DNA of 60,465 bases from a virus (IMGVR_UViG_3300021964_009736:1-60465); one strand, 5' to 3'; numbered from the stretch's first letter, positions 21,007 to 56,277 are shown. Made by a program: numbers and translations. Notes: generated by a model from the sequence alone, not told the origin.

Positions 21007-21035
21007 TTGACTCCATATCAAAATGAAAGTATAAT
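21007..21035 (+). promoter_or_regulatory. Sigma70-type promoter TTGACT-N17-TATAAT
   Basis: TTGACT 21007-21012, 17-nt spacer, TATAAT 21030-21035, in the intergenic gap before 21062. Confidence 0.8.
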
Positions 21036-21061
21036 AACTACTATATTAGGTAGGTATTATC

Positions 21062-21421
21062 ATGGATCATCGACTAGAAAAAGCTCTTGAATTAGCATCA
21101 TCATTAAGCATGTTTAATGATCAAAAATGTATATTGCTGAATAAATTCCAAGATCAATGTATATATTACTTTAACGGCGGTAAATTTACTGTAACACAAA
21201 GTCTAGTAAATTTTTGCTTCACGCTAACAAGTAATAACCAAACTTCTGCAGTAATAATAGATGACAACAACATTCCTATTAAGATAGAAATTCTTGAAGA
21301 TTTTTACCAAAATTTATTAAACGTTTATTCTACTGCGACTAATGAATACTATAATGATTATGAACTATTGATCAAAAAAAGATCTAAAGAACGACTTATG
21401 GATCTTGATAACAATGAGTAA
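21062..21421 (+). CDS. Hypothetical protein (119 aa)
   Basis: ORF directly after the promoter with an AGGT RBS-like element; overlaps the next start. Confidence 0.65.
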   Translation: MDHRLEKALELASSLSMFNDQKCILLNKFQDQCIYYFNGGKFTVTQSLVNFCFTLTSNNQTSAVIIDDNNIPIKIEILEDFYQNLLNVYSTATNEYYNDYELLIKKRSKERLMDLDNNE

Positions 21422-22229
21422 AGGTGTTGTTGTTTTTGCCTTCAAAAACGAGAAAATAGATTATATATCTCAAGCTGAATTTTTGGCAGAAAGAGTAACA
21501 AAATTTCTTGGTTTACCTACTACAATAGTAACAGATGAAAATATCAAAAGTAGTGTTTTTGATAATGTTATATTATTAGAAAAACCGAGCAAGCAAACCA
21601 AAAAATTTACAAATTTTGACAAAAGCGAAGATCTTACTTGGTATAACTGCGCACGACACAAAAGCTATGACATAACACCTTATGACAAAACACTAGTATT
21701 AGATTCTGATTATGTAATTTCAAACAATTTGCTTATAAATTGTTTCGAAACTGATGATATAATGATGTATTCTAACAATACTTTATTTTTAAATAATCCT
21801 AAACCTATGCATAATTATTTTTCAAATACTGGTCCAAAAATGTATTGGGCAACATGTTTGTATTTCACAAAAAATAAACAAGCGGAAATATTTTTTAATT
21901 TAGCTAAACATATTTTAGAAAACTATAAATTTTATTCTTTAATATATGACTTTAGTCATTCACCAATACGTAACGATTTTATTTTTTCTATTGCTACGCA
22001 TATCTTTAATAACTTTACTAACGGATCGTTTGTTAAAGATTGTCCTGGCAAACATTATATATTAGATGCAAATGATCTGTTATTAGACATAAACGATGAT
22101 ACTATAACATACCTTGCCTTTGATAGTTATAATGACCTACATAAACCTATAATATCCAAAGGGCTCAGTGTTCATGTTATGAATAAGTATTCTTTTGATC
22201 AGTTCATAGCAGGAGAAAAAAATGGATAG
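21414..22229 (+). CDS. Putative glycosyltransferase, GT-A fold (GT8-like)
   Basis: Likely ATG at 21414 (MSKGVVVFAF); TPYDKTLVLDSDY with DxD; RNDFIFS motif; late HVMNK. Confidence 0.65.
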   Translation: MSKGVVVFAFKNEKIDYISQAEFLAERVTKFLGLPTTIVTDENIKSSVFDNVILLEKPSKQTKKFTNFDKSEDLTWYNCARHKSYDITPYDKTLVLDSDYVISNNLLINCFETDDIMMYSNNTLFLNNPKPMHNYFSNTGPKMYWATCLYFTKNKQAEIFFNLAKHILENYKFYSLIYDFSHSPIRNDFIFSIATHIFNNFTNGSFVKDCPGKHYILDANDLLLDINDDTITYLAFDSYNDLHKPIISKGLSVHVMNKYSFDQFIAGEKNG

Positions 22230-23052: not shown

Positions 23053-23056
23053 CATT

Positions 23057-23584
23057 ATGTTTCTTTACTATAATAAATCCTCAGGAGAAGTATTAGGCGT
23101 ATCTAATAAACAGAAAGATACAGACCACGAAGTCTTACAAATTAACAATGCTTATCTAAAGAAATTTGACACAAAAAATTTACAAAAATATTATGTATAT
23201 TACAATGATAAATTAAATTCTTATGATATAGCCGAAAAGGTGACAAAAGTATCCTATCTGGATATTGCAAATAAGGTTCATATACTAGAAGAAAATCCTG
23301 ATGCAGATGTACTAGTAATAGTTGATACAAAACACAAAAAAATAAGTTGTAAACCAAATAATGGCTTCAAAGAAAAAATAGAAAAAAACATAGATGATTA
23401 TCCAATGAATTCTTTAACAATCTATATGGTGCAAAAGAATAATCCTAATGTAATTTTAGATACTTTTTCGTTTAATACTATAAATTTATTAAATGATAGT
23501 TGTGCAAATATAGATATTTCTACTATACATTGTGATTTTATGGTTACAAAGGTATTTGATAGTTACGGTATTGTATATGAATAA
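23057..23584 (+). CDS. Hypothetical protein (175 aa)
   Basis: AGGAG RBS; ORF in operon; no recognisable motif. Confidence 0.65.
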   Translation: MFLYYNKSSGEVLGVSNKQKDTDHEVLQINNAYLKKFDTKNLQKYYVYYNDKLNSYDIAEKVTKVSYLDIANKVHILEENPDADVLVIVDTKHKKISCKPNNGFKEKIEKNIDDYPMNSLTIYMVQKNNPNVILDTFSFNTINLLNDSCANIDISTIHCDFMVTKVFDSYGIVYE

Positions 23585-24464
23585 ATTAGCTATAGCTGAC
23601 ACTGATATAATTTATCTAAGTTTTGATGAACCTAATGCAGAAGAAAATTATTCTGACTTGCTGAGTAAATTTCCGTGGGCAAAACGTGTACACGGTGTAG
23701 AAGGATCAGATGCGGCACACAAAGCCTGTGCAGATATAGCAGAAACAAATAACTTTGTAACAGTAGACGGAGATAACAAAGTTAATCCAAGGTTTTTTGA
23801 TCAAATAGTAGACTTTGAAAAACATGACATAGACAAAAGTTATGTAGTAAGTTGGTGCGGAAAAATACATGTAAATGGTTTGATGTACGGAAACGGTGGA
23901 CTTAAATTATGGAATAAAGATTTTGTATATAATATGAAAACACACGAGGCGAGTGAAGGTGATGAAAAATATTCTGTAGAATTTTGTTTCGATCCTAAAT
24001 ATTTTCAACTAAATGAAAATTTTTCTGTTAGTTATACAAATTCTACACCTTGGCAAGCATGGCGTGCCGGATTTAGAGAAGGTGTAAAGATGTGTTTAGA
24101 TTCAGGAGTCAAAGTATCTAACATCAAAACACTATGGTGGCAAAACTACCACAGACTTTTAGTATGGTGTAATATTGGACATCATACTACAAATGGCATT
24201 TATAGTATATTAGGCGCTAGGGCAGGACTTTACAAAACAATGTGTGATAAATGGAACTATGAACTAGTAAGAGATTTTAGATATCTAAACAAGTTGTTTG
24301 ATGATGAATATGATTTAACAATATCAAAAGCATATGAAATGTCTGTAGATTTAGGAAGCAAAATATACAACGAACTTGACATACCAGTTAGTCCTGAGCC
24401 ATTATCAGAATTGCAAAGTAATTTTTTTAAAGAAGTATATATTAATACGAAAAGAGTTTTATAA
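23577..24464 (+). CDS. Putative glycosyltransferase, GT-A-like (phage family)
   Basis: Likely ATG at 23577 (MNKLAIADTD); DIIYLSFDEPNAEENY...RVHGVEG...AHK...VTVDGDN (DxD)...YGNGGLKLW...AWRAGFREGVK; clear paralogue of 29870..30556. Confidence 0.6.
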   Translation: MNKLAIADTDIIYLSFDEPNAEENYSDLLSKFPWAKRVHGVEGSDAAHKACADIAETNNFVTVDGDNKVNPRFFDQIVDFEKHDIDKSYVVSWCGKIHVNGLMYGNGGLKLWNKDFVYNMKTHEASEGDEKYSVEFCFDPKYFQLNENFSVSYTNSTPWQAWRAGFREGVKMCLDSGVKVSNIKTLWWQNYHRLLVWCNIGHHTTNGIYSILGARAGLYKTMCDKWNYELVRDFRYLNKLFDDEYDLTISKAYEMSVDLGSKIYNELDIPVSPEPLSELQSNFFKEVYINTKRVL

Positions 24465-25823
24465 ATGAATGAAGATCAAGAGTTTAATAACTTAGTTGAA
24501 AAAAAATTAAACAGTGTAAGCTGTAGCTTTTGCTTGGCAAAATGGAAACAGGTTACACTTCATTTAGGAACAGGTCACACACATAGTTGTCATCATCCTC
24601 GCACACATAAGATCCCATTGGAGGAAATTAAAGAAAATCCTAGTGCATTGCACAATACTAATTACAAAAAAATACAAAGAAAAATGATGCTTGAAGGAAC
24701 ACGGCCGCCTGAATGTAATTATTGTTGGAATGTAGAAGATGCAATTAAGGCAGAAGGTAATGATGTTATCAAAAGTGATAGGATTTACAAAAGTGGTGAC
24801 AGTTGGGCTAGAAAGTATTTTTATGAAGTTGCAGAAAGCGACTGGAAAGACAACGTAAATCCTAGTTATCTTGAAGTAAGTTTTAGTAATGTGTGTAATT
24901 TTAAGTGCGGTTACTGCAATCCTGAAAATAGTAGCAAGTGGATGGAAGAAATAAAGCAGTTTGGTGCTTATCCTACTAGAGATAACTTTAATGATCTGGA
25001 ATGGACAAAAAGCCAAGACAAGATGCCTATACCTGAAAATCAAGACAATCCTTATGTTGAAGCATTTTGGAAATGGTGGCCTGATTTATATAAAGACTTA
25101 CACACATTTAGGATAACAGGTGGAGAACCTTTACTAAACAAAAACACCTTTAAAGTGTTAGATTGGTTAATTGAAAATCCGCAACCTAAATTAGATCTAG
25201 CAGTAAACAGCAATTTATGTGTACCTAAAGAATTACTAGATAAGTTTTTGGAAAAGGTTGAAATATTAATAAGTAGTGGGCATTGCCGGTCATTCAAATT
25301 ATATACAAGTAATGAAGCATATGGAAGTAAAGCAGAATACATAAGATTTGGACTTAATTACAAAGATTGGTTAGAAAACTGTGAAAGATTTTTACAAATC
25401 CCTGGTAGAACAAAACTAGTGTGTATGGCTGCATATAATTTTTTAAGCATATCCAGTTTCAAAAATTTACTTGAAGATATTAAGTATCTTAAAGACAAAT
25501 ATACTAGTGAAGAAACTAAAGAAAGAGTAGCAATAGATATTCCATACTTGAATAATCCAAAATTTCTAAGTATAAATTTAGTTACACCCGAATTTACACC
25601 TTATATTGAAGATTCTATACAATACGCAAAAAATAATAATTTTGCAAAATGGGAAGTAGATAAGTTAGAAAGAATTCTAATGTTGGCAAATAATGCTGTA
25701 GCAGATGATTTGTTAAATATCGATTTCAAAAAATATATTATCGAACACGACCGTAGAAGGAATACAAACTTTTTAGAAACTTTTCCTGAATACAAAGATT
25801 TTTATGAAAGTATATTAACGTAA
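24465..25823 (+). CDS. Radical SAM enzyme with N-terminal twitch/SPASM-like Cys motif (452 aa)
   Basis: CNFKCGYC (CxxxCxxC), TGGEPLL; N-terminal CLAKW...SCHH...CNYCW; C-terminal DRRRNTNFLETFPE. Confidence 0.9.
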   Translation: MNEDQEFNNLVEKKLNSVSCSFCLAKWKQVTLHLGTGHTHSCHHPRTHKIPLEEIKENPSALHNTNYKKIQRKMMLEGTRPPECNYCWNVEDAIKAEGNDVIKSDRIYKSGDSWARKYFYEVAESDWKDNVNPSYLEVSFSNVCNFKCGYCNPENSSKWMEEIKQFGAYPTRDNFNDLEWTKSQDKMPIPENQDNPYVEAFWKWWPDLYKDLHTFRITGGEPLLNKNTFKVLDWLIENPQPKLDLAVNSNLCVPKELLDKFLEKVEILISSGHCRSFKLYTSNEAYGSKAEYIRFGLNYKDWLENCERFLQIPGRTKLVCMAAYNFLSISSFKNLLEDIKYLKDKYTSEETKERVAIDIPYLNNPKFLSINLVTPEFTPYIEDSIQYAKNNNFAKWEVDKLERILMLANNAVADDLLNIDFKKYIIEHDRRRNTNFLETFPEYKDFYESILT

Positions 25824-27380
25824 ATTTTTCATTGCATAAGGCAATTCAACTAGAGCCTTAGTATTATGGATTAGCACTGCCTCCATTTGTACTAGCATCT
25901 TATCTAATTGACTTTTAGGCAATCTACAGATTCTACTTACTTCAGAACCAATCATTTCTAATCTTTTTTCGTGGTTTGTTTCTTCATCATAACTTTCATC
26001 TAGCCATTTAGAAAAAGTTTTAAATCCTAAATCTTTCATAAGTTGTAAACTTCCGGGAGGTCCTGCAATGATAAACGGTCTCATAGCCGCCGCTGCTTTT
26101 AAAGTTTTTTCACTTACATAAGGCATAGGAGAATAATACCTTGTCTCTGTAGCAACATTTAGAAAGCTGTTTTGTATTATGTAAATGCTTCTAAATTGAT
26201 CCATATCATCTATATCAATTTCTTCTTTTAATTTATCATCGTATAATCCTGCAGGTCTAAAGTCTACATAATACTCTTTTTCTAGTAATAATTTATTATT
26301 ATCTATCATCTTATCTTGCATATTCTTTGAAAATTTACTAAATTTCAAACTAGGATTAGCCATTAAGTTTTGTTCATTTATTCTATAAGGCATACTTAAT
26401 GCAAGATTAGGACAATCAGCAATCATAGTTGCCATAATATATCTGTGCCAATCAAATCTTCTATTTAAACAGACCGCATGATTTTCGAAAGAATTATCAT
26501 AGTGGCTAATTACTTTACACATGATGTTGTCTGTTTTCTTAGTGCCAACTGGTTCGAACATTCTTTTGTACGCTTCGTATGTTTCCCAATTTCCTACTAA
26601 TATGAATTTATTATTACTTGCAACAAGTAAAGGATGATGAATGTGTAAGTCTGTTGCTTTATTAGATGTATGACCTTCATTTTGTATTGCTGTATATAAA
26701 CTCTTTAAATTATTTGTAATTCTTTCTACTTCAGGCTCATGTGCTGTATATTCGGTTGGGATGATATCTGCAAAAGGAACAGCAGTATTCCGACCCACAC
26801 TAGCAGTTTTGACACTGCTTTCGTCTACTAATCTAATACCTAAATAGTTTTGTTCAGACAAGAACCAGTCATAATACTTGATGGGAAATCCATATCTTTC
26901 TTCAAGATGGGTGCAATTACGCTCTCCAGAAAAAACTTCAAAATTCTTTATACCTGCGTTGTTTACTAGATATTCGACTATTTCTAATTCCATAGCTCCA
27001 GTATTTTTAGGATCTGATTGTAACAAGTAAGTATCAAATGTTCTACCCGGATGAAAATGTTTGTTGTGTACTATTCTAAACACATCTTCTACAAAAAAAT
27101 AAACCTTTGCTTTATTTGTGAGTTTTGCAAGTCGTCTAAGTATTATATTACAGTCTTCAAAATATACCCATCCTGATATTAACACAACAAAATCATCCTT
27201 GCCAAAATTAAAGGACTTTTGTGCCATTTCAAAGTAAGCAGGCGTAGATAACTTCTTATGCCTGCCGTTATGAGACATTAATGCAGAACCTTTATTATAT
27301 AAAGTAATAGACGGATGTTTAATAGGTTGCAACAGTTCAGTATGACGATCCTTATTAAATGCTTTTAGTTCTCTTTTCAT
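25815..27380 (-). CDS. Putative glycosyltransferase (GT10/GT-B-like C-terminal domain) with an internal insert (521 aa)
   Basis: CLNRR...HR and FLNVATET...YVSEKTLK...PFIIAG...GFKTF...DESYD motifs resemble the donor-binding region of GT10-like transferases. Confidence 0.55.
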   Translation of the reverse strand: MKRELKAFNKDRHTELLQPIKHPSITLYNKGSALMSHNGRHKKLSTPAYFEMAQKSFNFGKDDFVVLISGWVYFEDCNIILRRLAKLTNKAKVYFFVEDVFRIVHNKHFHPGRTFDTYLLQSDPKNTGAMELEIVEYLVNNAGIKNFEVFSGERNCTHLEERYGFPIKYYDWFLSEQNYLGIRLVDESSVKTASVGRNTAVPFADIIPTEYTAHEPEVERITNNLKSLYTAIQNEGHTSNKATDLHIHHPLLVASNNKFILVGNWETYEAYKRMFEPVGTKKTDNIMCKVISHYDNSFENHAVCLNRRFDWHRYIMATMIADCPNLALSMPYRINEQNLMANPSLKFSKFSKNMQDKMIDNNKLLLEKEYYVDFRPAGLYDDKLKEEIDIDDMDQFRSIYIIQNSFLNVATETRYYSPMPYVSEKTLKAAAAMRPFIIAGPPGSLQLMKDLGFKTFSKWLDESYDEETNHEKRLEMIGSEVSRICRLPKSQLDKMLVQMEAVLIHNTKALVELPYAMKNLR

Positions 27381-28072
27381 TTTATTTCCATTTGTTCTTT
27401 TATGTAATTTGCAAACTCTCTATGGCCTGCAGCATTAGGATGTCCGCAAGGGAGAAAATATTTACTCGGTCTATGGTTTTCTCTTTCTACTACAGCCCTT
27501 TGCCAATCTTTGCCCATGTTCTTTTTAGCAAATCTACTAACCAATTTGTAATTTTTATCGCTCATCCAATCAAATTCAAAAATAGGCATCCTATGTTTAA
27601 AGCCTATACCATTGTCCTGTTTTACTAGATACTCAAAAAACGTAAATGGCAAATAATTTTCTCCTGTTAATATTTCGTCAAACACAGAAAAGAAAATTAT
27701 TTCTGTACATGTATTTAAGCATTTTTGCCTAATTAACTTTTCATATTCTTTTGTAGGTCCTATCATCAGGTCAAGAGTTTTTATTTCTTTAAAGATTATC
27801 TCTCTGCGATTTTGTAAATTAGGCGGCACATAGCAAAAATCTATTGTACGCGAGCCGTAACTTCTACGTGTTACACCCGACCATCCTACAATTACAAGAT
27901 CATATTTTTCTTTACGCATGTTACTAGAAAAAATTTTATATATTTTTTCATTACTGGCGCCTGAAGTTCCGTGATTATCAACATCATGCCCTAACAACAT
28001 AGGCCAGGGAAGTTCATCTTCTTTTAATCCATATCCTTCTGTCCAACTACAACCTACTGTTAATATTCTCAT
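27377..28072 (-). CDS. SGNH/GDSL hydrolase-family protein (esterase or acyltransferase)
   Basis: Likely ATG at 28072 (ATGA overlap with the upstream stop); GCSWTEG (block I Ser), NHGTSGASN (block II), GHPNAAGH (block V His). Confidence 0.75.
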   Translation of the reverse strand: MRILTVGCSWTEGYGLKEDELPWPMLLGHDVDNHGTSGASNEKIYKIFSSNMRKEKYDLVIVGWSGVTRRSYGSRTIDFCYVPPNLQNRREIIFKEIKTLDLMIGPTKEYEKLIRQKCLNTCTEIIFFSVFDEILTGENYLPFTFFEYLVKQDNGIGFKHRMPIFEFDWMSDKNYKLVSRFAKKNMGKDWQRAVVERENHRPSKYFLPCGHPNAAGHREFANYIKEQMEIK

Positions 28073-28569
28073 TTGTACTCGCAAAATGTAATTTGGGCAG
28101 TATATCTAGGTTCTAGTCCTAAATTTGCAGCCATATGTAAGCAATCATGATTCCAAAGCACATAAGTTCCCGCAGTCCAATCTAATATTTTTCCATCTAT
28201 TTCAAAAATATGTCCCGGTCTTCTATCTTCTAGGAATATTATAGCTCTTTTAATGACACTAGGATCATCTATATTATAAAGTTCTCTATATTTTTTGTAA
28301 GTATCAGAGTGATGAGGAAGTATGTTACATGTATTCATTTTATAGAAGCTCAAAGTTATATTTACTCCGTCAAATAATTTCATGAATTTACTGGTCCAAT
28401 CGGGCATTTCTCTACTCATATCGTAAAGTTTACCAGTAAATTCTTTTTGACTGTATCCTTGGAGTTTCCAAGTTTGTATTTGTAAACTATCATTAAATGG
28501 TAGTCGCTGATAGTCTAGTTCCTTATGTTGCATTTTCCAAAAAGGTTGAATCAAACCAGTAGAATACAT
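28069..28569 (-). CDS. Fe(II)/2OG-type oxygenase (cupin, Asp/Asn beta-hydroxylase-like)
   Basis: LPHHSD (HxD)...LHMAAN (distal His)...PRYTAQIT (Arg); AGGAG RBS. Confidence 0.75.
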   Translation of the reverse strand: MYSTGLIQPFWKMQHKELDYQRLPFNDSLQIQTWKLQGYSQKEFTGKLYDMSREMPDWTSKFMKLFDGVNITLSFYKMNTCNILPHHSDTYKKYRELYNIDDPSVIKRAIIFLEDRRPGHIFEIDGKILDWTAGTYVLWNHDCLHMAANLGLEPRYTAQITFCEYK

Positions 28570-28582
28570 TATAACTCCTAGG

Positions 28583-28606
28583 TAAATAAACTGCGTATAT
28601 TATTTA
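28583..28606. promoter_or_regulatory. Face-to-face pair of TAAATA late-promoter-like motifs serving divergent operons
   Basis: TAAATA on + at 28583-28588 and on - at 28601-28606 in the 49-nt gap between divergent genes, each upstream of an AGGAG RBS. Confidence 0.55.
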
Positions 28607-28618
28607 TCAGGAGTACAA

Positions 28619-29851
28619 ATGCACATAGGATTTATAGGAGTCGGAAAACTTGGATTACCCTGTGCTGAGGAAGTTGCAATCAGAGGTCATCAAGTTGGAT
28701 GCTATGATATAGATACAGCAATCAAAAGTGAATTAGTTACAATGCATGATTCTATTAAGGATGCAGTAGAAAACAAAGACATTGTATTTGTTGCAGTGCC
28801 TACACCTCACGATAAATCATATGATGGCAGAGCACCAACTAGTCATTTACCTCCTAAAGATTTTGATTACACTATTGTGAAAGAAGTAATTGCTGAAGCA
28901 AATAAATTTATGAATAATACACAACTGCTTTGTTTGATAAGCACTGTATTGCCAGGTACGGTCCGCAGAGATATTATACCATTAGTTACAAATACACGTT
29001 TTGTATATAATCCTTACTTAATTGCAATGGGTAGTGTTGCATGGGATATGGTTAATCCAGAGATGGTAATGATTGGCACTGATGATGGTAGTGAAACTGG
29101 CGATGCAAAGCAATTACGCGAATTTTATGAATCTATTATGGATAATTTTCCACGTTATGTTATAGGAACCTATGACGAGTGCGAGTGTATTAAGGTTTTT
29201 TACAATACATTCATTAGTACAAAGTTAAGTTTAGTAAATATGATGCAAGATGTAGCAATGAAGCAAGGCAATATTAATGTTGATGTTGTTACAGATGCTC
29301 TAGCAGAATCAACTATGCGCATTATGAGTACTCAATACATGCGAGCGGGCATGGGAGACGGCGGTGCATGCCATCCTAGAGATAATATTGCTCTACGTTA
29401 CATGGCAAAGGACTTAGACTTAGGGTATGATATATTTGATACTATAATGAATGCTAGAGAAATACAAGCAAAAAATCTTGCAAAATTTTTAGTTGAAAAA
29501 GCAAAGCAATATAATCTTCCTATATTAATCCATGGTGTTACTTATAAACCGGATGTCCCATACAAAGACGGCAGTTACAGTTTATTGGTTGCTCACTATT
29601 GCGAAGAAATGGGTTATTATCCTATTTTAGTTGATCCAATGACGCATCCTTTGCGAGGACCGTTTAAGGCTGTTGTTCTACTTGGTCATTCTAACCAGGT
29701 TACATATAACTACACTAAAGAAGAACAAAAACAAACTTTCTATTGTTATCTAGAAAAAGATAGTGTCATTGTAGATCCTTGGCGACTTTATAAGAATGAA
29801 GAACAAAAATATATCTATATACCCTATGGAAATACTAGACAAAAGGTTTAA
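28619..29851 (+). CDS. ugd: UDP-glucose/GDP-mannose 6-dehydrogenase family
   Basis: GFIGVGKLG Rossmann motif, FVAVPTP, STVLPGT, KVFYNTF, catalytic Cys in GDGGACHPRD, TYKPD. Confidence 0.9.
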   Translation: MHIGFIGVGKLGLPCAEEVAIRGHQVGCYDIDTAIKSELVTMHDSIKDAVENKDIVFVAVPTPHDKSYDGRAPTSHLPPKDFDYTIVKEVIAEANKFMNNTQLLCLISTVLPGTVRRDIIPLVTNTRFVYNPYLIAMGSVAWDMVNPEMVMIGTDDGSETGDAKQLREFYESIMDNFPRYVIGTYDECECIKVFYNTFISTKLSLVNMMQDVAMKQGNINVDVVTDALAESTMRIMSTQYMRAGMGDGGACHPRDNIALRYMAKDLDLGYDIFDTIMNAREIQAKNLAKFLVEKAKQYNLPILIHGVTYKPDVPYKDGSYSLLVAHYCEEMGYYPILVDPMTHPLRGPFKAVVLLGHSNQVTYNYTKEEQKQTFYCYLEKDSVIVDPWRLYKNEEQKYIYIPYGNTRQKV

Positions 29852-29869
29852 TTTTTGTTATAATGTACT

Positions 29870-42486: not shown

Positions 42487-42500
42487 TACTACCTATAGCT

Positions 42501-43820: not shown

Positions 43821-44517
43821 ATTAGAAAAGTTTTTTGAAGAGCATTCAAAAGAATATAAATTTTCTTATCCTGATATATTCGATCCTACTTGGGTTGTAA
43901 AGGAAAGCGAATGGCCTTTCTTTAGGCTTAGTGCTTTAGATAAGCAACCGTATAGCGAAATGTATAAAGAGGCATATAAGTTATATGATAGGTTTTATGA
44001 ACATAGGGAGGCATACGGAAAAGGATGGCGCAGTCTTACACTTAACGGATTAGATGAAGACACACAAACATTGGACAGTTATGGAGACAGGAAACAAACT
44101 ATAGAAAAATTAGACTGGACTTGGGTAGCAGATGCTTGCCCGATTACAAAAAAATTCTTAACAGATGTTTGGCCCTCTGAATATTTGAATAGAGTAAGAT
44201 TTATGTTGTTAGAGCCCGGAGGTTATATATTACCACACCAGGATAGACCGGACACACAAAAAAGACTTAGTGTTTGTAATATTAGTTTAAATAATCCTAT
44301 AGGATGTGAATTTGTTATGAAAGACCAAGGCACTGTGCCTTTCGATCCAAACGGAAGTGCAATGTTAATGGATATTAGTAATGTACATGCAGTGTGGAAC
44401 AGAAGTAACGAACCAAGAATACACATGATTATACATTTTGAAATAGGTAGAAGAATAAGAGATTTTTTCTATGTGTTAAGAGAAAGTTATCATTTAAATA
44501 GGAATAATAATGTCTGA
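43807..44517 (+). CDS. Fe(II)/2OG oxygenase, Asp/Asn beta-hydroxylase-like
   Basis: RVRFMLLEPGGYILPHQD (HxD)...VHAVWNRSNEPRIHMII. Confidence 0.85.
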   Translation: MTPVELEKFFEEHSKEYKFSYPDIFDPTWVVKESEWPFFRLSALDKQPYSEMYKEAYKLYDRFYEHREAYGKGWRSLTLNGLDEDTQTLDSYGDRKQTIEKLDWTWVADACPITKKFLTDVWPSEYLNRVRFMLLEPGGYILPHQDRPDTQKRLSVCNISLNNPIGCEFVMKDQGTVPFDPNGSAMLMDISNVHAVWNRSNEPRIHMIIHFEIGRRIRDFFYVLRESYHLNRNNNV

Positions 44518-45997
44518 AGATTGGAATAGTATTACAGTTGATAGATATTGGGATAGACAGGGTAACACTTCTAATGATATAGGTATAGGTATCCTAGATA
44601 TAAGTAGAGATATCTCAAGTAGCGTTATACAGAAGCGTTGTTTTGATATGACATACTTTTATATCAATAGAATGGTAAAGATGGGAATCTGTAAATACTT
44701 AGGATTTGAAAATACAGTAGAAAAAATATTAGAATCAGCAGACAACGCCGGCAAAAAATATTGTTTGATAGCATGTCAGGGAAATTTACTTTTCCGAGGA
44801 CCAACTATAATAAATCTTACTTTGAAGTATATAGAAGAAAATCCAGATTTTTTTGTTATTGGTCATATAATAGACAAACAAAAACAAAAATCAACTACAG
44901 ATATATACCCTGGGTTACATAGGCAATATCTTTTTGTAAATGTACGAAAATGGCGAGCGTTGGGTAGCCCTCAGTTTGATGAAATTGGTTACTTTAAGGA
45001 CAGGAAACCAGTGCTTGCGAATTATCAATGTAGTCAAGATACATGCTATGCTAATTATACACCTGCGTATATCAAAGGTTTACCCGGGGAGCAAGAATAC
45101 ACAGAAACAAGTGATGGAAGTAATTGGATAGATATCGCATGTAGAAATGATATACGCATAGATAATTTAACAGACAAAATGCGAGATTGTAAAGTTTTTC
45201 TTTATCCTTATAGTGATACTGAAATTTTAGAAAAGGTTTGGTACAATAAACAATCTCCTTTAGTTGACAAAATTACCAATCAAAGTCAAAAAGCATGGAT
45301 TAGAAAATTAGGTTATCAAGAAGAAATAGAAAAAGATAGGGTATATGCATTTAACACAGAGATATTAAGTGGAGAAGGAATACGTTCTCAAACTATAGAT
45401 CATTTTTTCTCTGTAGCGGCAGGATTTAAGCCTTTGGCTATCTTAAATGCAAACGGATTCCACGAAAAAACAACAGTGACTTATTTTGATTGGTGCGAAG
45501 CAAGTTTAAATTACAAAAAACATTTATTAGAAACTTGGGACGGTGTAGACTTACACAAATGGCTTCTGGAGCATGATTTACTTTATAACTTTTCTAGCAC
45601 TTATAGAGGCACATACGAAGAATTTTGGATACAAGAAGCAAATGAACATGGCGGTCCTGAATCATTTAAGAATTTATGGGATAGGTATAGAAAATTAGAA
45701 CATAACTTTTGTGTAATTGATATTGTTAATAATCCAGAACTATTATTTGATAAAGTAAATAAGTGTATAGGAAATAAAGTTATGTGGACAACTAATATTT
45801 GGTCAAGCGAAATGTTGCACTGGAATGTTGAACCAGAGGTACTAGAACAGAAATGGATTAATTTTGAAAAACTTGTACCAAATGATCTAGTTCTTTACGG
45901 ACATGACTACATGGGTGTAGATATAAATCAGAGAGTGAGGAATAATGCAAGGACAACACATCCCCGGTTTCAAACCGTATATTCAAGTTTATCCTAG
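44510..45997 (+). CDS. Hypothetical two-domain enzyme (possible GT-A-like N-terminus and Rossmann/methyltransferase-like C-terminus), 495 aa
   Basis: Long ORF in operon; FFSVAAGFK...VTYFDW resembles a nucleotide-binding beta1-Gly/beta2-Asp unit; the function is a weak inference. Confidence 0.45.
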   Translation: MSEDWNSITVDRYWDRQGNTSNDIGIGILDISRDISSSVIQKRCFDMTYFYINRMVKMGICKYLGFENTVEKILESADNAGKKYCLIACQGNLLFRGPTIINLTLKYIEENPDFFVIGHIIDKQKQKSTTDIYPGLHRQYLFVNVRKWRALGSPQFDEIGYFKDRKPVLANYQCSQDTCYANYTPAYIKGLPGEQEYTETSDGSNWIDIACRNDIRIDNLTDKMRDCKVFLYPYSDTEILEKVWYNKQSPLVDKITNQSQKAWIRKLGYQEEIEKDRVYAFNTEILSGEGIRSQTIDHFFSVAAGFKPLAILNANGFHEKTTVTYFDWCEASLNYKKHLLETWDGVDLHKWLLEHDLLYNFSSTYRGTYEEFWIQEANEHGGPESFKNLWDRYRKLEHNFCVIDIVNNPELLFDKVNKCIGNKVMWTTNIWSSEMLHWNVEPEVLEQKWINFEKLVPNDLVLYGHDYMGVDINQRVRNNARTTHPRFQTVYSSLS

Positions 45998-47936: not shown

Positions 47937-48658
47937 GATTTTATAAAGGAAAAGATTTAGAAAAATTAGACTATGATACTATCTATAATGGAGATGATTG
48001 GGATATTATAGAGTTGAATGTTTCTTGGGATCCTATTAAAGCGTCTGAATGGTACAAGCAAGTTTGGGAAAAATTTGGTCATCTAGATTTTAACTTTAAC
48101 AGAGATCAACATTTAATTGATGTACCCGATAGTCAAATGGCATACACTGAAAACTTCTGCGGTACAGGCATGCAGATTCCTATTCACGGATTTACACTAG
48201 GATGGCCTATTGACAGAGATGATTACCCGTTACCGCCTCATAATCAAGCAAACAAGGAGTTATTTCCTGAAACTTTAGCTCCTGATTTTATTGAAACATC
48301 ATTATGGCTAGACAAGTATAAATTTGGATACATGAAAGATATTACTAGTATTTTTGAAAATTACAGATTATATCTTCCTACTTTAACTATACATGAACCG
48401 GGAGGCATAATTAATCCTCACGTTGATAGTAGGGTTAAGAAAATGCATATGATAATCGAAACAAATGAAGAAAACTATTTTACATTTGGTGAAGATCATG
48501 CTAGACAATATTTAATGGAGCCTGCAAAGGCATATATTATTAACACCCATATACCTCATGGAACTATTAATAAAGGTAAGACTGCAAGAGCACACATTTT
48601 GTTAAGAATAGAAGAAGAAGAAATGATGGATCTCTTAAAGTTAGAAGCCCATATATAA
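47933..48658 (+). CDS. Fe(II)/2OG oxygenase, Asp/Asn beta-hydroxylase-like
   Basis: HEPGGIINPHVD...MHMIIETN...INTHIPHGTINKGKTARAHI. Confidence 0.85.
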   Translation: MRFYKGKDLEKLDYDTIYNGDDWDIIELNVSWDPIKASEWYKQVWEKFGHLDFNFNRDQHLIDVPDSQMAYTENFCGTGMQIPIHGFTLGWPIDRDDYPLPPHNQANKELFPETLAPDFIETSLWLDKYKFGYMKDITSIFENYRLYLPTLTIHEPGGIINPHVDSRVKKMHMIIETNEENYFTFGEDHARQYLMEPAKAYIINTHIPHGTINKGKTARAHILLRIEEEEMMDLLKLEAHI

Positions 48659-49140
48659 TGCTGTATCAGTGGATTCCTGAAAAGGATAAAGAAACTTTTT
48701 ATAATCATATGATTAGACCTGACATGCCAGGTTTCGGTCCTGTAATAGATAGATATCAGAATAATGGGTATCATGATATTACTGAATATGAGACATATAA
48801 GGACTGTAGATGCGGCTTCTATCTAGGAAATTACGACAATGATGTTGTAATTAATCGTCCTTGTATTGTTACATTAACAAGTGATTTTGATAACCATCTG
48901 TTTATCAAAGCTGAACGCACTATCATTTATGGAGCCAACTATAAAGCAAAAAATATAAGTATTTTCACAGACGATGATTCTTTTATGGAAACAGGAACTT
49001 GTGTTGGAAAAGTTATGTTTATAGATTTGGCAATAGATAATCTGGATATTAAAGATTCAATTAACATAGCTTTCATTAATACTACTGTTAAATCAAAAAA
49101 TATTGTTAACACAACTAGTATAGTAGAGGTTATAGATTGA
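48658..49140 (+). CDS. Hypothetical protein (160 aa)
   Basis: Overlaps both neighbours (TAATG and TTGA); no recognisable motif. Confidence 0.6.
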   Translation: MLYQWIPEKDKETFYNHMIRPDMPGFGPVIDRYQNNGYHDITEYETYKDCRCGFYLGNYDNDVVINRPCIVTLTSDFDNHLFIKAERTIIYGANYKAKNISIFTDDDSFMETGTCVGKVMFIDLAIDNLDIKDSINIAFINTTVKSKNIVNTTSIVEVID

Positions 49141-50654
49141 AAATTTGTATAGTAGGCGGCGGAACAGCCGGATGGATTTCACTAAGTTACTTAGCGGCCA
49201 CTACAAAATACGATCTTACTATTTTACATAGTGATGAAATAGATGCTATAGGAGTGGGGGAAAGCACCACTCCTACTATCAAACATCTTGTAGATGTTAT
49301 AGGCATAGATGAAAAAACATGGATGAAGGATTCAAAAGCAACCTTTAAATATGGCATAGAATTTAAAGACTTTGCAAAAAAAGGTTCTAGATGGTTTCAT
49401 TCATTTGATGATCAATTGCCGCATCAAGTATTTCATCAGCCTGTTACACATAACGGCAAACTAGTTTATGACAGACAGCACACCAGTATAGATTATTTTC
49501 TGCAAACATATCCTTATGAAAGCAAACTTTTTAATGATACACACGGTCCTTTAGAATACTTATTAGAAAAAGAACTTAGTCCATTTAATGAGGCAGGAAC
49601 ACCAAACAATGGAAATTTTCCGGGATATAGTTATCATCTTAATGCTCAGTTGTTTGGAGATTGCTTAAAGAAGCATACTCCTGTTGATAGATACACGGAA
49701 ATTAATGCTACAGTAACAGACGTAGTAGTTAAAGACAATCTAGTTCAAAGTATTAAATTAGATAACGGGAATGCCATAGAAGCTGATATATTCATTGATT
49801 GTACAGGATTTCGCAGATTATTAATTAGTAAATTTAGTAAATTTCAAAAATACACTGATCTGAAAAACAACGCCGCAATTTTCGGTGTTATTCCTGGTTA
49901 TCAAATTAATAGACCATCTACAATAGCACATGCACAAGACTATGGATGGATATGGACTACACCTACAGTAGGGCAAGTAGGGACCGGGTATGTATATAGC
50001 GATGATTATATTTCAGAACAATATGCATTAGATACACTTAACAAATACTGGGAAGACCGCGGACAAAAATTCCAATTAGCAAAATCAGTAAAGTTTACAG
50101 CTGGTAGACAGGAAAAATTAAGTTTTGGAAATGTAATTTCAAATGGACTAGCACAAAGTTTTATTGAACCATTAGAAGCTACAAGTTTAATGGTCACATG
50201 TGTTACAGTAAAGAGCCTAGTAACATTGCTTAATAAACCAAGAAAAACTACAATTGAGTCTATTACAAAGGTTCATTCTAAGCACATGGAAAAATTTATA
50301 GACCACACAAAGTATTTTGTGTATATGCATTATGCTTTAAGCTCTCGTAATGATACAGATTATTGGAAAGATGTAGGTAACAAGGAAAATGCAGATAAAC
50401 AAGCCACAGACTATATTGTTAATAGAGTTAATACCAGTCAATGGTTACATAGTGGAGAAACACTTTTAAACCAATTTAATTGGGTAAGTATGCTCATTGG
50501 CTACGATAAGTCATACGGCAAATTGTTGCCTAAATTTAATAGTAGTGAGATAGAGAACTATAAATGGTATACAGAAAATCTTATGGCTAACTACAAATTT
50601 ATTACCAGAAACAATATTCCTGTAAAGGACTTGTTAATTGATATTAATGGTTAG
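49137..50654 (+). CDS. Flavin-dependent halogenase, tryptophan halogenase (PrnA-like) family
   Basis: IVGGGTAGW, GVGEST, ATFKYGI (Lys equivalent to the PrnA catalytic Lys), FIDCTGF, GWIWTTP (WxWxIP variant), FIEPLEAT. Confidence 0.9.
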   Translation: MKICIVGGGTAGWISLSYLAATTKYDLTILHSDEIDAIGVGESTTPTIKHLVDVIGIDEKTWMKDSKATFKYGIEFKDFAKKGSRWFHSFDDQLPHQVFHQPVTHNGKLVYDRQHTSIDYFLQTYPYESKLFNDTHGPLEYLLEKELSPFNEAGTPNNGNFPGYSYHLNAQLFGDCLKKHTPVDRYTEINATVTDVVVKDNLVQSIKLDNGNAIEADIFIDCTGFRRLLISKFSKFQKYTDLKNNAAIFGVIPGYQINRPSTIAHAQDYGWIWTTPTVGQVGTGYVYSDDYISEQYALDTLNKYWEDRGQKFQLAKSVKFTAGRQEKLSFGNVISNGLAQSFIEPLEATSLMVTCVTVKSLVTLLNKPRKTTIESITKVHSKHMEKFIDHTKYFVYMHYALSSRNDTDYWKDVGNKENADKQATDYIVNRVNTSQWLHSGETLLNQFNWVSMLIGYDKSYGKLLPKFNSSEIENYKWYTENLMANYKFITRNNIPVKDLLIDING

Positions 50655-51231
50655 CTCTAGCTCTATAGTATTCTTCTTCGTTTAATTTCCAAATATTTTG
50701 TTTAGTATTGAAAAGTTCAACTTCGCTATAAGCCTTAGAAAAAATCTTATTTTTAAGTAAAGTTCTATGTACAGCTAAATCCATTCTGTTACTTTTTCCT
50801 CTAGTTTCTTTATTAGTTGCACAGTTCGTGCTTAAATAGAATTCGGGTTTTTCAAACTGTTCTTTGATAAATTGCATTTGCATATGTAGTAAATAGTATG
50901 TTTGAAAACTATTAAACAGTGTACTGTCTAAACTGCCCTTCCTAGAATACTTGGGCAATGTAGCACCTCTAAATAAACATCGCCATGCATTAGGATTTAT
51001 TTGATCTAATTTATGTACTCCTGCCATGGAAAAAATTATTTCTTTTTCTGTATCTATACCTATAAAGAATTGTCCGTAAGGCATCTTCATTTTGTCGTAT
51101 TTTATGGTTTCTAAACTTACATTATTATGGTAATTTAAATCTTTACATTTATTACAAAATGATATTAATAAATCTAAATCAGATTCATTATATTGCCTAA
51201 ACAGCAGTTTTCCAAGTTTTACCATTTGCAT
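50644..51231 (-). CDS. Putative GNAT-fold acyltransferase
   Basis: FRQYNESDL start, FFIGID...IFSMAGVH...WRCLFRGATLPKY pattern resembling GNAT beta2-beta4; overlaps the adenylation gene. Confidence 0.5.
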   Translation of the reverse strand: MQMVKLGKLLFRQYNESDLDLLISFCNKCKDLNYHNNVSLETIKYDKMKMPYGQFFIGIDTEKEIIFSMAGVHKLDQINPNAWRCLFRGATLPKYSRKGSLDSTLFNSFQTYYLLHMQMQFIKEQFEKPEFYLSTNCATNKETRGKSNRMDLAVHRTLLKNKIFSKAYSEVELFNTKQNIWKLNEEEYYRARANH

Positions 51232-51868
51232 CTTTTATCCTACTGTGAAAGGTCTTTGATTCCATGTTAAATAAATCTCCTGTTGCAACACCATTTATAT
51301 AACACATACTGATTTTTGATTCTATTCCTGAAACAGGCATAAACATAACATGAAATCTCTTAGTGTCTATAGTCTCTAGATCAAAAGAAATAGAATTATA
51401 ACCTACAAAAACCGGCGGCGGAAATTCAGTCATTCCATACCAATTGCCTATTTTTTGTACTCCTTTTGACAAAAATGCATCTATAAATTCTTGTGTAATT
51501 TGCGAACTACCAGTAACCATATATTTGACACTGCTCATATCTAACTCTTTGAACACTTTAGATGCAGATAATAATTCAAAATGTTTAGGTATTAAAGAAA
51601 TATAAGTTGGTTTTATTTGATTAAATAACTCGCAATATGAATATGGTGAAAAATTGGCACAAGTTAAACTAGCACCAGCTAATCTTGCAGGGTACGCTGT
51701 AACTGTATAGTGGGCAACGGTATTCCCAGGAAATACATCTAGTACCCTGTCCTCAGAAGTCAAACCGATTTCTTTTATACTTGCTTTTGCACAGTCATTG
51801 ATATAATCCCAAGAATGTGTGACTAATTTTGGTTGATCAGTACTGCCACTAGTGAATAATGTTAGCAT
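51197..51868 (-). CDS. Truncated AMP-binding (ANL adenylate-forming) enzyme, 223 aa
   Basis: LFTSGSTDQPK (A3 P-loop), WYGMTE (A5), TGDL (A7); lacks the usual N-terminal part and the C-terminal subdomain. Confidence 0.75.
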   Translation of the reverse strand: MLTLFTSGSTDQPKLVTHSWDYINDCAKASIKEIGLTSEDRVLDVFPGNTVAHYTVTAYPARLAGASLTCANFSPYSYCELFNQIKPTYISLIPKHFELLSASKVFKELDMSSVKYMVTGSSQITQEFIDAFLSKGVQKIGNWYGMTEFPPPVFVGYNSISFDLETIDTKRFHVMFMPVSGIESKISMCYINGVATGDLFNMESKTFHSRIKDANGKTWKTAV

Positions 51869-56174: not shown

Positions 56175-56204
56175 AAGTGCCTCTCATTCCTTAGTTATAC
56201 ATAC

Positions 56205-56233: not shown

Positions 56234-56236
56234 GAG

Positions 56237-56263: not shown

Positions 56264-56277
56264 AACTCTTTTTGGCA

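Follow-up and report, generated by a model that had tools for sequence, protein, structure and literature searches.

The stretch of DNA analysed here (IMGVR_UViG_3300021964_009736, "the window") is one entire viral IMG/VR contig of 60,465 bp. Because its CheckV completeness is 16%, the whole genome is estimated at ~380 kb. Between tail-fibre genes on either side, positions 21062-51868 hold an island of 35 non-nested open reading frames (ORFs) in six strand blocks, which makes up about a tenth of the estimated genome and is 99.7% coding. Of its 34 junctions, 30 overlap or abut, and the largest gap is 49 nt. A reading made from the DNA alone (the sequence-only reading) had described about 35 tightly overlapping genes, mostly for tailoring enzymes, and had proposed that they decorate the virion; the gene number and the packing are borne out. 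GC content ranges from 0.29 to 0.38 across the window, and the island edges show no compositional break. ORFs are named after their start coordinate in the window (g33079 is 33079..34374); related phage sequences carry the prefix G, and individual loci in relatives the prefix L.

Nine island ORFs encode radical S-adenosylmethionine (SAM) enzymes, the number given by the sequence-only reading. They fall into three paralogous groups and carry the CxxxCxxC motif in 9/9 cases:

24465..25823, plus strand: radical SAM enzyme with N-terminal twitch domain, g24465 (NF033640 325.4 bits; CNFKCGYC)
30507..31511, plus strand: radical SAM enzyme of the short type, g30507, paralogue of g35027 (PF04055 46.8 bits; CNYNCSYC)
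31414..32493, plus strand: radical SAM enzyme with C-terminal SPASM domain, g31414 (PF04055 36.4 bits, PF13186 33.2 bits)
33079..34374, plus strand: radical SAM enzyme with N-terminal twitch domain, the best-conserved member, g33079 (NF033640 415.6 bits; SPASM at residues 6-85, core at 134-289)
35027..35935, plus strand: radical SAM enzyme of the short type, g35027 (PF04055 40.3 bits; CNYRCSYC)
36471..37619, minus strand: radical SAM enzyme with N-terminal twitch domain, g36471 (NF033640 230.9 bits)
40397..41437, minus strand: radical SAM enzyme with N-terminal twitch domain, g40397 (NF033640 239.8 bits, PF04055 54.8 bits)
41425..42474, minus strand: radical SAM enzyme with C-terminal SPASM-like domain, g41425 (PF04055 39.2 bits; SPASM 18.8 bits, below cut-off; 30% identity to g31414)
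42501..43820, plus strand: radical SAM enzyme with N-terminal twitch domain, g42501 (NF033640 204.3 bits)

Eight of these proteins match PF04055 with 36-55 bits. The ninth, g24465, reaches 27.4 bits, below the cut-off of 29.5, but scores 325 bits with NF033640. A six-frame PF04055 search of the record listed eight matches, without g41425, which reaches 39.2 bits when searched as an ORF. NF033640 is the NCBIfam family "twitch domain-containing radical SAM protein" (398-position model, curated cut-off 170 bits), and five island enzymes are members, with near full-length matches that run from model positions 1-5 to 396-398 of 398. In this group, the Cys-rich auxiliary domain lies N-terminal to the radical SAM core, which is an unusual placement. 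Pfam SPASM matches precede the core at residues 6-85 in g33079, 9-71 in g36471, and 6-69 in g40397, and C6, C82, and C85 are invariant in the alignment of the five N-twitch paralogues. The short-type enzyme g30507 is 62-78% identical to its counterparts in phage relatives and 45-52% to those in Bdellovibrionota.

A profile of the N-twitch group (A5) found only generic radical SAM matches in the PDB (MoaA at E 2.8e-5, SkfB, and viperin). Equivalog models for maturases of ribosomally synthesised, post-translationally modified peptides (RiPPs), namely PapB, YhhB/XyeB, CcpM, WgkB, and mycofactocin, gave best scores of 20-47 bits, far below their cut-offs of 265-650, and no RiPP recognition element (RRE) turned up in general Pfam scans, an RRE-specific search not being part of these. 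The 30 nearest named ESM Atlas clusters of g33079 are all virus-dominated. Compared with cultured phages, g33079 shows at most 29% identity, and at most 24% where most of the protein is covered. No function for NF033640 was found in the literature searched.

The seven Fe(II)/2-oxoglutarate (2OG) oxygenases counted from the sequence alone were likewise recovered. Four of these 2OG/cupin-type proteins lie above Pfam cut-offs (g43807, g45945, g47340, and g46640), one lies just below (g47933), and two were assigned on other grounds, g34374 by profile only and g28069 by an E value of 0.055 together with its motif. They are listed here with g44510, the neighbour of g43807, whose N-terminal part has the GT-A fold of glycosyltransferases (GTs):

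28069..28569, minus strand: small cupin/2OG-oxygenase-like protein g28069 (PF05118 E 0.055; H87-x-D89 ... H141/H145)
34374..35030, plus strand: proline-hydroxylase-like 2OG/Fe(II) oxygenase g34374 (profile A2 to 1e5r at E 3.5e-4 and to 4p7w at 2.9e-3)
43807..44517, plus strand: Asp/Asn-beta-hydroxylase-family (AspH-like) 2OG oxygenase g43807 (PF05118 45.9 bits)
44510..45997, plus strand: two-domain protein g44510, N-terminal GT-A fold and C-terminal alpha/beta domain of no assigned type (AF2 pLDDT 63)
45945-46649, 46640-47347, 47340-47936, and 47933-48658, plus strand: four further, paralogous 2OG oxygenases (PF05118 51.3, 28.4, and 21.3 bits; PF13759 28.4 bits for g46640)

The Asp/Asn beta-hydroxylase family PF05118 is matched above its cut-off by g43807, g45945, and g47340, and at 21.3 bits against a cut-off of 22.6 by g47933; all four carry HxD and a distal H. 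In g34374, which is 76-79% identical among relatives, H135, D137, and H185 are invariant.

The genes g43807 and g44510 are neighbours in every phage lineage mapped. Residues 15-271 of g44510 match GT-A enzymes, Mimivirus R699 included, with VIA Z scores of 10.4, 10.1, and 10.0 (root-mean-square deviation [rmsd] 4.5 over 156 aligned residues for the top match). In Bdellovibrionota, AspH-like and g44510-type proteins are fused in the same order in three of four loci (L143, L126, and L190) and are adjacent and unfused in the fourth (L131). The 733-aa fusion at L143:2383-4584(-) is 41% identical to g43807 over residues 59-234 (E 4e-38) and 25% identical to g44510 over residues 314-682 (E 6e-31); the others are L126:3405-5831(-) with 808 aa and L190:3932-6148(-) with 738 aa. 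Among protein-database homologues of g44510, none fell into the "longer" class, and the 120 listed near-length matches are all unfused phage proteins, fusions of 733-808 aa falling within this near-length class of the search. Prediction of a g43807-g44510 complex gave weak support, with a median ipSAE of 0.56 against 0.00 for the best control. This mark is reached by 58 of 80 solved complexes and by two of 110 mismatched pairs, with scores of 0.60 or less in only seven of the 80 and in both mismatches; contacts agreed to at least 73% between runs, and partner pLDDT was at least 83. Gene fusion in Bdellovibrionota predicts that the hydroxylase g43807 and the transferase-fold protein g44510 work together.

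Mimivirus L230 is said to combine hydroxylation and glycosylation in one protein, as LH3 does. For LH3, lysine hydroxylation followed by glycosylation of the new hydroxyl within one protein is described (PMC6082870), and Mimivirus has collagen-modifying enzymes that include the R699 glucosyltransferase (PMC9546862). The Bdellovibrionota fusion resembles LH3 in joining a hydroxylase to a glycosyltransferase fold, which is an analogy of mechanism and not of membership. Unlike in LH3, the hydroxylase belongs to the AspH family and not to the lysyl-hydroxylase family, and no collagen-like G-x-y repeats are present in the window proteins.

Together with g44510, five proteins of the island are GT-A/GT8-like (g21405, g22222, g23532, and g29870 being the others). 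All are invisible to Pfam and PHROGs and were seen by profiles or folds. About five glycosyltransferase-like proteins had been expected from the sequence, and this number stands at the level of fold and profile, with g21405 and g22222 weak and g25815 a lead only:

21405-22229 and 22222-23052, plus strand: two paralogous GT8-like proteins (profile A3 to glycogenin GT8 at E 1.2e-3, weak; invariant D100/D102)
23532..24464, plus strand: GT-A-fold protein g23532 (33% identity to g29870; in the same alignment, A4, as the modelled g29870)
25815..27380, minus strand: 521-aa protein g25815, candidate GT10-like (nearest named ESM Atlas clusters GT10 at 0.79, lead only)
29870..30556, plus strand: GT-A/nucleotide-diphospho-sugar-transferase-fold protein g29870 (AF2 pLDDT 87; invariant D57/D59)

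All Foldseek matches of g29870 are GT-A glycosyltransferases at E ~1e-4, and VIA aligns it to B4GALNT1 with Z 11.3 (rmsd 2.8, 137 residues aligned), nucleotidyltransferases of this fold scoring nearly as well. Proteins or virions are the acceptors of some of the transferases that the GT-fold proteins match in structure (PBCV-1 A64R, Mimivirus R699, LH3/ColGalT1, and the S-glycosyltransferases SunS/ThuS), at fold level only with 3-12% identity. The nearest Atlas clusters of g25815 are viral hypotheticals only, and the protein is poorly conserved in relatives.

Further enzymes of the island would supply or add other groups:

28619..29851, plus strand: UDP-glucose/GDP-mannose dehydrogenase family protein g28619 (PF03721 65.2 bits, PF00984 60.5 bits)
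32483..33082, plus strand: candidate class-I methyltransferase g32483 (Methyltransf_25 E 0.017 only; present in 80/80 related loci)
35915..36490, minus strand: short-chain dehydrogenase/reductase (SDR) g35915 (profile A9 to 7w61 at E 1.4e-7; remaining matches likewise SDRs)
39958..40422, minus strand: 154-aa kinase-loop-like protein g39958 (profile A8 to the protein-kinase-domain chains 8w7l at E 0.015 and SalKC at 0.06; weak)
49137..50654, plus strand: flavin-dependent tryptophan-halogenase-family protein g49137 (PF04820 291 bits, profile positions 1-442 of 458)
51197..51868, minus strand: stand-alone adenylation (ANL) core g51197, 223 aa (PF00501 70 bits, profile positions 168-331 of 384)

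The nucleotide-sugar dehydrogenase, the halogenase, the SDR, and the adenylation enzyme named by the sequence-only reading are thus confirmed, the last as a truncated core fragment. Its methyltransferase, its kinase, and its two propellers (Kelch 23 bits against a cut-off of 50) found weak support only. The labels SGNH for g27377 (Pfam and PHROGs) and GNAT for g50644 (Pfam, PHROGs, and PDB profile search) found none. In g28619, which is 61-66% identical among relatives, the N-terminal and central domains score above their cut-offs, and the C-terminal UDP-binding domain, with 18.4 bits, below its cut-off of 30. The halogenase g49137 has GGGTAG at residue 7 and a variant second motif, WIWTTP; the Lys in ATFKYG and the Glu in EPLEAT are, by motif, the putative catalytic residues. 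It is 27-32% identical to halogenases of cyanophages and of pelagiphage HTVC008M. The adenylation core g51197 starts at the phosphate-binding TSGST motif and is without the N- and C-terminal subdomains. Because it has the same length and 59-67% identity in G002-G004, where it constantly lies beside g50644, we regard it as a genuine short form and not a pseudogene. By sequence, g32483 is a probable class-I methyltransferase, and g39958 has the invariant residues H103, D105, N110, and D122-W-D124.

No transmembrane-like segment was detected in any of the 35 island proteins (maximum 19-residue hydropathy <1.6), all of which look soluble. Pfam identified no Wzx/Wzy/ABC, flippase, polymerase, exporter, or initiating transferase family among the island ORFs, and no scaffold synthase of the nonribosomal peptide synthetase (NRPS), polyketide synthase (PKS), terpene, or ATP-grasp type, no transporter, and no peptidase. 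Since eight of the 17 island ORFs without a Pfam family at E<=0.01 were later assigned by fold or profile, the absence of a family is not proof. Pfam searches of 20 proteins at E up to 10 returned noise only, except for g28069 and g32483. PHROGs gave 0/10 families for ten unannotated island proteins, and PDB profile searches yielded nothing usable for A1 (g44510), A4 (g29870), A10 (propellers), A11 (methyltransferase-like), and A12 ("GNAT"). The gene layout leaves no room in the island for a non-overlapping small ORF such as a precursor gene. On both counts, no NRPS/PKS and no precursor peptide, the sequence-only reading was right. For reductant, iron, and co-substrates, 2OG oxygenases and radical SAM enzymes depend on the cytoplasm. 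Because of these cofactor needs, the soluble proteins, and the absence from the families found of any flippase, polymerase, initiating transferase, exporter, peptidase, or scaffold synthase, the acceptor would have to be within reach in the infected cell's cytoplasm. This leaves virion proteins during assembly, DNA, a metabolite or peptide in free form, or lipid-linked precursors of host glycans, which the host would go on to export.

For the third of these, the product would be a small molecule or tailored peptide (a halogenated, hydroxylated, and glycosylated metabolite derived from an amino acid or a sugar, or a RiPP-like one) that acts during infection, for instance as a signal, a cofactor, or an antibiotic directed at competitors. 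In favour of this, the radical SAM/SPASM enzymes, the SDR, the Trp halogenase, the adenylation core, and the oxygenases of AspH-like and proline-hydroxylase-like type form a set that resembles natural-product tailoring; g34374 has its best solved relatives among enzymes acting on free proline; and g39958 weakly matches a "Protein kinase domain-containing protein" and SalKC kinase domains (E 0.015 and 0.06). As in RiPP radical SAM/SPASM systems (sactipeptide, ranthipeptide, and cyclophane), cores with auxiliary-cluster domains stand beside other tailoring enzymes. Unlike in those systems, equivalog scores are sub-threshold, no precursor, peptidase, or exporter was found, and the auxiliary domain is N-terminal in five enzymes. 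The missing scaffold synthase, transporter, and peptidase and the lack of space for a small precursor gene speak against a metabolite, as does the number of transferase-fold proteins, five or six being many for a small molecule. A strict position among fibre genes, described below, would also be unexpected for a metabolite cluster, and we consider this role of the island rather unlikely.

The flanks of the island place it in a tail-fibre module. Tail-fibre genes lie on both sides, as the sequence-only reading had stated, with three fibres and g19910 on the left and an Mtd_N protein on the right:

1..13683, plus strand: giant structural protein of at least 4560 aa, 5' end off the contig, in the left flank outside the island (29% identity over 931 aa to the 4449-aa "T4-like phage structural protein" of Atu_ph07)
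13709..14320, plus strand: structural/baseplate-type protein g13709, 203 aa (phrog_11259 238 bits; 53-56% identity to Atu_ph07 and Phosso)
14324-16462, 16462-18345, and 18377-19897, plus strand: three paralogous tail-fibre genes (PHROG tail fibre/tail families; common N-terminal domain)
19910..20998, plus strand: fast-evolving fibre-associated protein g19910, 362 aa (no family found)
51915..53360, minus strand: right-flank fibre/tropism protein g51915 (Mtd_N 41.8 bits)
54903-57363, minus strand: MoxR-type AAA+ ATPase and DUF2201 metallopeptidase/vWA protein (MoxR 81-86% identity in relatives)
58900-59889: exonuclease (50% identity to PA5oct-like phages)

Judging from the matches of the flanking genes (g13709, the exonuclease, and the MoxR/vWA pair), the phage is a jumbo myovirus of the supergroup that holds Atu_ph07, Phosso, Rak2-like phages, PA5oct, and XbC2. 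A MoxR-vWA chaperone-cochaperone pair has been reported for "group 2.2" jumbo phages (Iyer et al. 2021, PMC7824862), and homologues of g13709 carry a "baseplate" or "structural" annotation in some Rak2-like phages. The gene order of Atu_ph07 matches that of the window in its giant protein (4449 aa), its g13709 homologue, and a fibre with the same N-terminal domain. The giant protein is 41-47% identical in G001/G003/G004, in the first of which it appears as two consecutive tblastn segments of ~2095 and ~2439 aligned residues. It matches FG-GAP_2 weakly, self-BLAST detects no repeats within it, and only 5 of its 4560 residues are Cys; the structural proteins of the window as a whole are nearly Cys-free (0-0.8%). 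Paralogy within the fibre trio, which matches the Collar domain with 29 bits, is confined to the first ~140-340 residues (~175-340 aligned), and the third paralogue has a Peptidase_G2/intramolecular chaperone (IMC) match of 23.8 bits, just below the cut-off of 25. Because the single Atu_ph07 fibre matches the first ~137 residues, in the N-domain of the window fibres, these sequences suggest a common attachment domain with differing distal parts. The protein g19910 is 28-31% identical in relatives and lies constantly between the fibres and the island; g51915 (32-40%) lies constantly at the right island edge.

We regard it as very improbable that the island hypermodifies the phage DNA, giving it glycosylated or amino-acid-derivatised bases as a protection from nucleases of the host. 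It lies in the fibre module and not in the replication/nucleotide module, which starts to its right at the exonuclease (58900-59889). Pfam and NCBIfam identified no hydroxymethylase, DNA-glycosylase-like transferase, dNMP/DNA base kinase, nuclease, or polymerase accessory among the 35 ORFs, and we know of no DNA role for AspH-like or proline-hydroxylase-like oxygenases or for Trp halogenases. What speaks for this possibility is that all island enzymes are cytoplasmic and that phage DNA hypermodification uses kinases, radical SAM enzymes, and glycosyltransferases (PMC5889632; Pyle et al. 2024).

The island is conserved well beyond the window. All but one of 170 candidate IMG/VR stretches (169) encode a g33079 relative, and its identity in the kept loci (n=80) is 63-71% in 78, with one locus at 100% and two at 90%. 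In the protein database, 5538 of 8000 candidates scored are related to g33079 at E<=0.001, on contigs of up to 379 kb. Homologues covering at least half of the query were present in the 80 loci as follows: g30507 in 73, g31414 in 77, g32483 and g33079 in 80 each, g34374 in 68, and g35027 in 76, counts that include some paralogue matches and come from contigs many of which are short. Gene-by-gene maps were made for G001-G004 (98-157 kb); G008 gave no match and was left unmapped. The whole block 21062-51868 is syntenic, in the same order and place, in G002-G004, following the giant protein, g13709, the three fibres, and g19910 and preceding the Mtd_N fibre, the MoxR-vWA pair, and the exonuclease. 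The link of the island to the same fibre genes, which the sequence-only reading had put forward as a check, thus recurs in G001-G007, an outcome that speaks for this reading. Fibre genes are seen on both sides of the island in G001, G003, and G004 and on the one visible side in G002, G005, G006, and G007: on the right in G002, where the left is the contig end; as a fibre trio ~7 kb before its locus in G005; and as a g51915-like fibre bordering the enzyme block in G007. The g13709 structural gene is on the same contig in G009 and G010. Island proteins are 40-79% identical in relatives, fibres 28-50%, and MoxR 81-86%.

Synteny in G001 is kept up to g44510, this relative being without the propellers and the block 45945-51868. 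In the distant relative G006, the enzyme block has grown to ~44 kb (~9.2-53.3 kb, loci L195-L197) with many ORFs that have no counterpart in the window, and it ends with homologues of g29870, g23532, g22222, g21405, and g21062, beside a 1462-aa protein and a g19910-like protein. Because the same boundary genes frame this expanded block, island content appears to grow and shrink between lineages while the boundary genes stay.

Outside phages, a survey with one genome per prokaryotic species listed at least 600 stretches, at least 202 of which encode relatives. By record titles, 56 of the 78 loci kept are of Bdellovibrionota type (Bdellovibrio-, Pseudobdellovibrio-, Bacteriovorac-, and Oligoflexia names) and 20 come from scattered other taxa. 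In Bdellovibrionota, the N-twitch radical SAM genes form tandem arrays of up to six or seven (L182, L125, and L146), with several loci per genome; one 3.04-Mb contig carries L140, L143, and L159. Frequent companions are homologues of g30507, g31414, g32483, g35027, g35915, and g23532/g29870 and the g43807+g44510 pair. To judge from these sequences, N-twitch radical SAM arrays and the AspH-GT couple are shared almost only with these predatory bacteria, whose own adhesins include phage-fibre-like ones.

The bacterial arrays stand alone amid housekeeping genes, as biosynthetic clusters do, which favours a metabolite. In a Pfam tally of 118 neighbouring ORFs at 12 of the 78 loci, chosen for long arrays or large contigs and with ORFs matching window proteins excluded, no neighbour family recurred in more than two members, and the context was that of neither polysaccharide export nor RiPPs. 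Clustering of 868 small ORFs near the 78 loci yielded no conserved precursor candidate, a further point against a metabolite. This negative covers the window and the surroundings of the bacterial arrays, and a precursor encoded elsewhere or a large protein substrate is compatible with it. The largest cross-locus cluster spans four loci and is a small membrane peptide of 39-57 aa with the pattern KKWW...P (L134:20415-20564(-), L131:2451-2570(+), L187:9761-9910(+), and L183:11263-11436(+)).

Among the acceptors available in the cytoplasm, we favour virion proteins because of the invariant position in the fibre module, the core-gene-like conservation, the number of transferase-fold proteins, and the hydroxylase-transferase couple. 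Our preferred reading, held tentatively and at somewhat less than an even chance, is that the island encodes a conserved pathway, located in the cytoplasm, by which surface proteins of the virion are decorated through hydroxylation-coupled glycosylation and radical chemistry, the acceptor being one that we infer. It starts from what was observed directly, i.e., the enzyme families, their conservation and position, the solubility of the proteins, and the hydroxylase-transferase fusion. Each individual reaction, by contrast, is deduced from the family of its enzyme. The targets would be the fibres encoded on both sides of the island, and perhaps the giant structural protein, during cytoplasmic assembly. 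Oxygenases of the Asp/Asn-hydroxylase and proline-hydroxylase types would place hydroxyls on side chains, and GT-A/GT8-fold transferases would build sugars on the new hydroxyls, with g43807 and g44510 acting as a couple. The UDP-sugar dehydrogenase and the SDR, methyltransferase-like, and kinase-like proteins may supply or trim the sugars. The nine radical SAM enzymes could perform C-H chemistry on glycan or peptide (epimerisation, oxidation, or cross-linking), and the flavin halogenase and the mini-adenylation enzyme might add further marks. In the fullest form of this proposal, receptor-binding fibres or the giant surface protein would be hydroxylated, glycosylated, halogenated, and radical-modified by the very phage that encodes them. 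Post-translational modification of virions would thereby gain a new class, and NF033640 its first function; this we hold to be doubtful.

Several observations weigh against virion proteins as the target. Around the fibre module of Atu_ph07, a stretch of 40 kb contains no match to any island protein, so fibres need no island to assemble, and G001 is without the propellers and 45945-51868 yet retains its fibres. The bacterial arrays lie amid unrelated housekeeping genes and not beside fibre-like genes. The conserved position may be no more than inherited genome architecture of the phage family. The near-absence of Cys from the structural proteins rules out Cys-based thioether (classic SPASM) chemistry on them, the remaining options being epimerisation, oxidation, C-C/C-O coupling, or a reaction on a glycan. 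The fold of g29870 is nearly as close to nucleotidyltransferases (IspD/MobA, Z ~10 to 10.8) as to glycosyltransferases, and the nearest solved relatives of g34374 are free-proline hydroxylases. Free tryptophan is a common substrate of Trp halogenases of the family of g49137, and UDP-sugar dehydrogenases typically belong to polysaccharide pathways. The virion decoration proposed by the sequence-only reading hence stands in part: the position beside the fibres is kept, and solubility and the hydroxylase-GT fusion fit a cytoplasmic acceptor such as virion proteins under assembly, whereas the island-free fibres of Atu_ph07, the bacterial arrays away from fibres, and the free-proline relatives of g34374 do not favour it.

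The island might instead remodel the host surface (lipopolysaccharide [LPS]/O-antigen, capsule, lipid A, or another envelope glycoconjugate) against superinfection or against progeny sticking to debris. UDP-sugar dehydrogenases and GT8-/GT-A-fold proteins are typical LPS/capsule enzymes, and PF05118 includes the lipid A hydroxylase LpxO. On the other side, the searches turned up no flippase, polymerase, initiating phosphoglycosyl transferase, or other component embedded in the membrane or placed in the periplasm, 35/35 proteins look soluble, and export of an altered glycan would depend wholly on the host. The island is also as conserved as core genes, unlike typical host-specific serotype-conversion modules, and to our knowledge nine oxygen-sensitive radical SAM enzymes have no precedent in O-antigen conversion. 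Altogether we judge host-surface remodelling unlikely. It does have published counterparts, in that GT8-rich fibre-linked clusters with radical SAM cassettes have been read as modifying the O-chain (PMC7029224) and cyanophage clusters have been termed "capsular polysaccharide modification systems" (PMC7824862).

The first of these counterparts is the "host recognition cluster" (HRC) of pelagimyophages and cyanomyophages, in which fibres are interleaved with GT8 and other GTs, UDP-glucose dehydrogenase, Asp/Asn beta-hydroxylases, and radical SAM cassettes (PMC7029224). Its authors interpret it as modifying the host O-chain, a function that is unproven. The island is likewise flanked by tail fibres and contains GTs, a UDP-sugar dehydrogenase, Asp/Asn hydroxylases, and radical SAM enzymes, the carriers being marine myoviruses in the HRC case. 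The HRC phages described there are T4-like with ~150-200 kb, whereas the island phage is a jumbo myovirus of the Atu_ph07/Rak2/PA5oct supergroup. The HRC is hypervariable, whereas the island is syntenic with 40-79% identity in G001-G004 and varies in content at its edges. It further differs in its nine radical SAM enzymes, five of them of the N-terminal-twitch type, and in its kinship to Bdellovibrionota arrays. The sequence-only reading had stated that no comparable phage system was known. This needs to be qualified by the HRCs with their GTs and radical SAM enzymes and by a T4-like marine genome with 12 radical SAM genes in a context of Fe-S metabolism (Nishimura et al., PMC5332604), but a description of the island itself was not found in the literature searched, supplementary tables lying outside that search. 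Cultured phages have no close homologue of its proteins, as judged by PHROGs, the g33079 comparison, and megablast, the last of which found no match to 21007-45900 among 50,697 phage records. On present sequence evidence, the island is akin to the fibre-linked enzyme clusters of marine myoviruses and set apart from them by lineage, strict synteny, the dominance of N-twitch radical SAM enzymes, and Bdellovibrionota kinship.

The second counterpart, the cyanophage clusters of Iyer et al. 2021 (PMC7824862), combines several GTs, an amino-acid halogenase, 2OG oxygenases, and cupins and is predicted to decorate capsule or polysaccharide or to make a halogenated metabolite. The island shares its combination of GT-like proteins, a halogenase, and 2OG oxygenases/cupins. 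The cluster core of carbamoyltransferases, a HemK-like methylase, and HAD phosphatases has no equivalent found in the island, and the nine radical SAM enzymes of the island do not appear in the cluster description. Closer to our preferred reading of virion decoration, PBCV-1 (A64R), Mimivirus (R699 and L230; fibril and collagen glycosylation), and mycobacteriophages with capsid and tail glycans use virus-encoded cytoplasmic sugar-nucleotide enzymes and GT-A transferases to decorate their own surface proteins, an arrangement that the island would resemble. Structural comparison matched g29870 and g44510 with A64R and R699, among others, at fold level only. We know of no radical SAM enzymes in the virion-glycosylation systems of chlorovirus, Mimivirus, or mycobacteriophage.

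Phages with the island are common in aquatic metagenomes (169 IMG/VR stretches and >5500 database proteins related to g33079). If virion proteins are the target, radical SAM chemistry and hydroxylation-coupled glycosylation would give a phage novel means of tuning or shielding the proteins that bind its receptor, which would bear on host range and on the poor prediction of hosts from fibre sequence alone. If the product is a metabolite, the island would be among the largest biosynthetic clusters known in a phage. In either case, it opens to testing a radical SAM family that is uncharacterised and, in the ESM Atlas, mostly viral, as well as the AspH-glycosyltransferase couple.

The remaining island ORFs are the following:

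21062..21421, plus strand: first island gene g21062, 119 aa, no family (island-boundary gene in G001-G004 and G006, 39-46% identity)
23057..23584, plus strand: 175-aa protein g23057 (no family found)
27377..28084, minus strand: 235-aa protein g27377, formerly labelled SGNH (no Pfam or PHROGs family)
37598-38752 and 38733-39992, minus strand: two paralogous beta-propeller-like proteins (Kelch E 5.4e-5 for g38733, 23 bits against a cut-off of 50; paralogy E 1.3e-5)
48658..49140, plus strand: 160-aa protein g48658 (no family found)
50644..51231, minus strand: 195-aa protein g50644, formerly labelled GNAT (no match in Pfam, PHROGs, or PDB profile search; next to g51197 in G002-G004)

The propeller-like proteins have no PDB sequence match, and none is present in G001. 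Just upstream of the first island gene, at 21007-21035 on the plus strand, lies a near-consensus sigma-70-like promoter (TTGACT, 17 nt, TATAAT; 11/12), which is not kept in G001, G003, or G004. Promoter-like sequences occur as often as expected from shuffled sequence (96 against 93.9 and 102 against 107.2), and a T4-type late motif occurs once, inside a gene. In G003, a strong hairpin with a T-run terminator lies between the g19910 homologue and the island (L111 ~10150-10230). Scans of the window for tRNAs and Rfam families returned nothing. At least half of the sampled words of window 28601-38600 are present in five sequencing runs, one of which may come from the source sample, with no RNA run among those listed, and the runs with DNA near-identical to this segment are mainly labelled estuary metagenome, some soil or freshwater.

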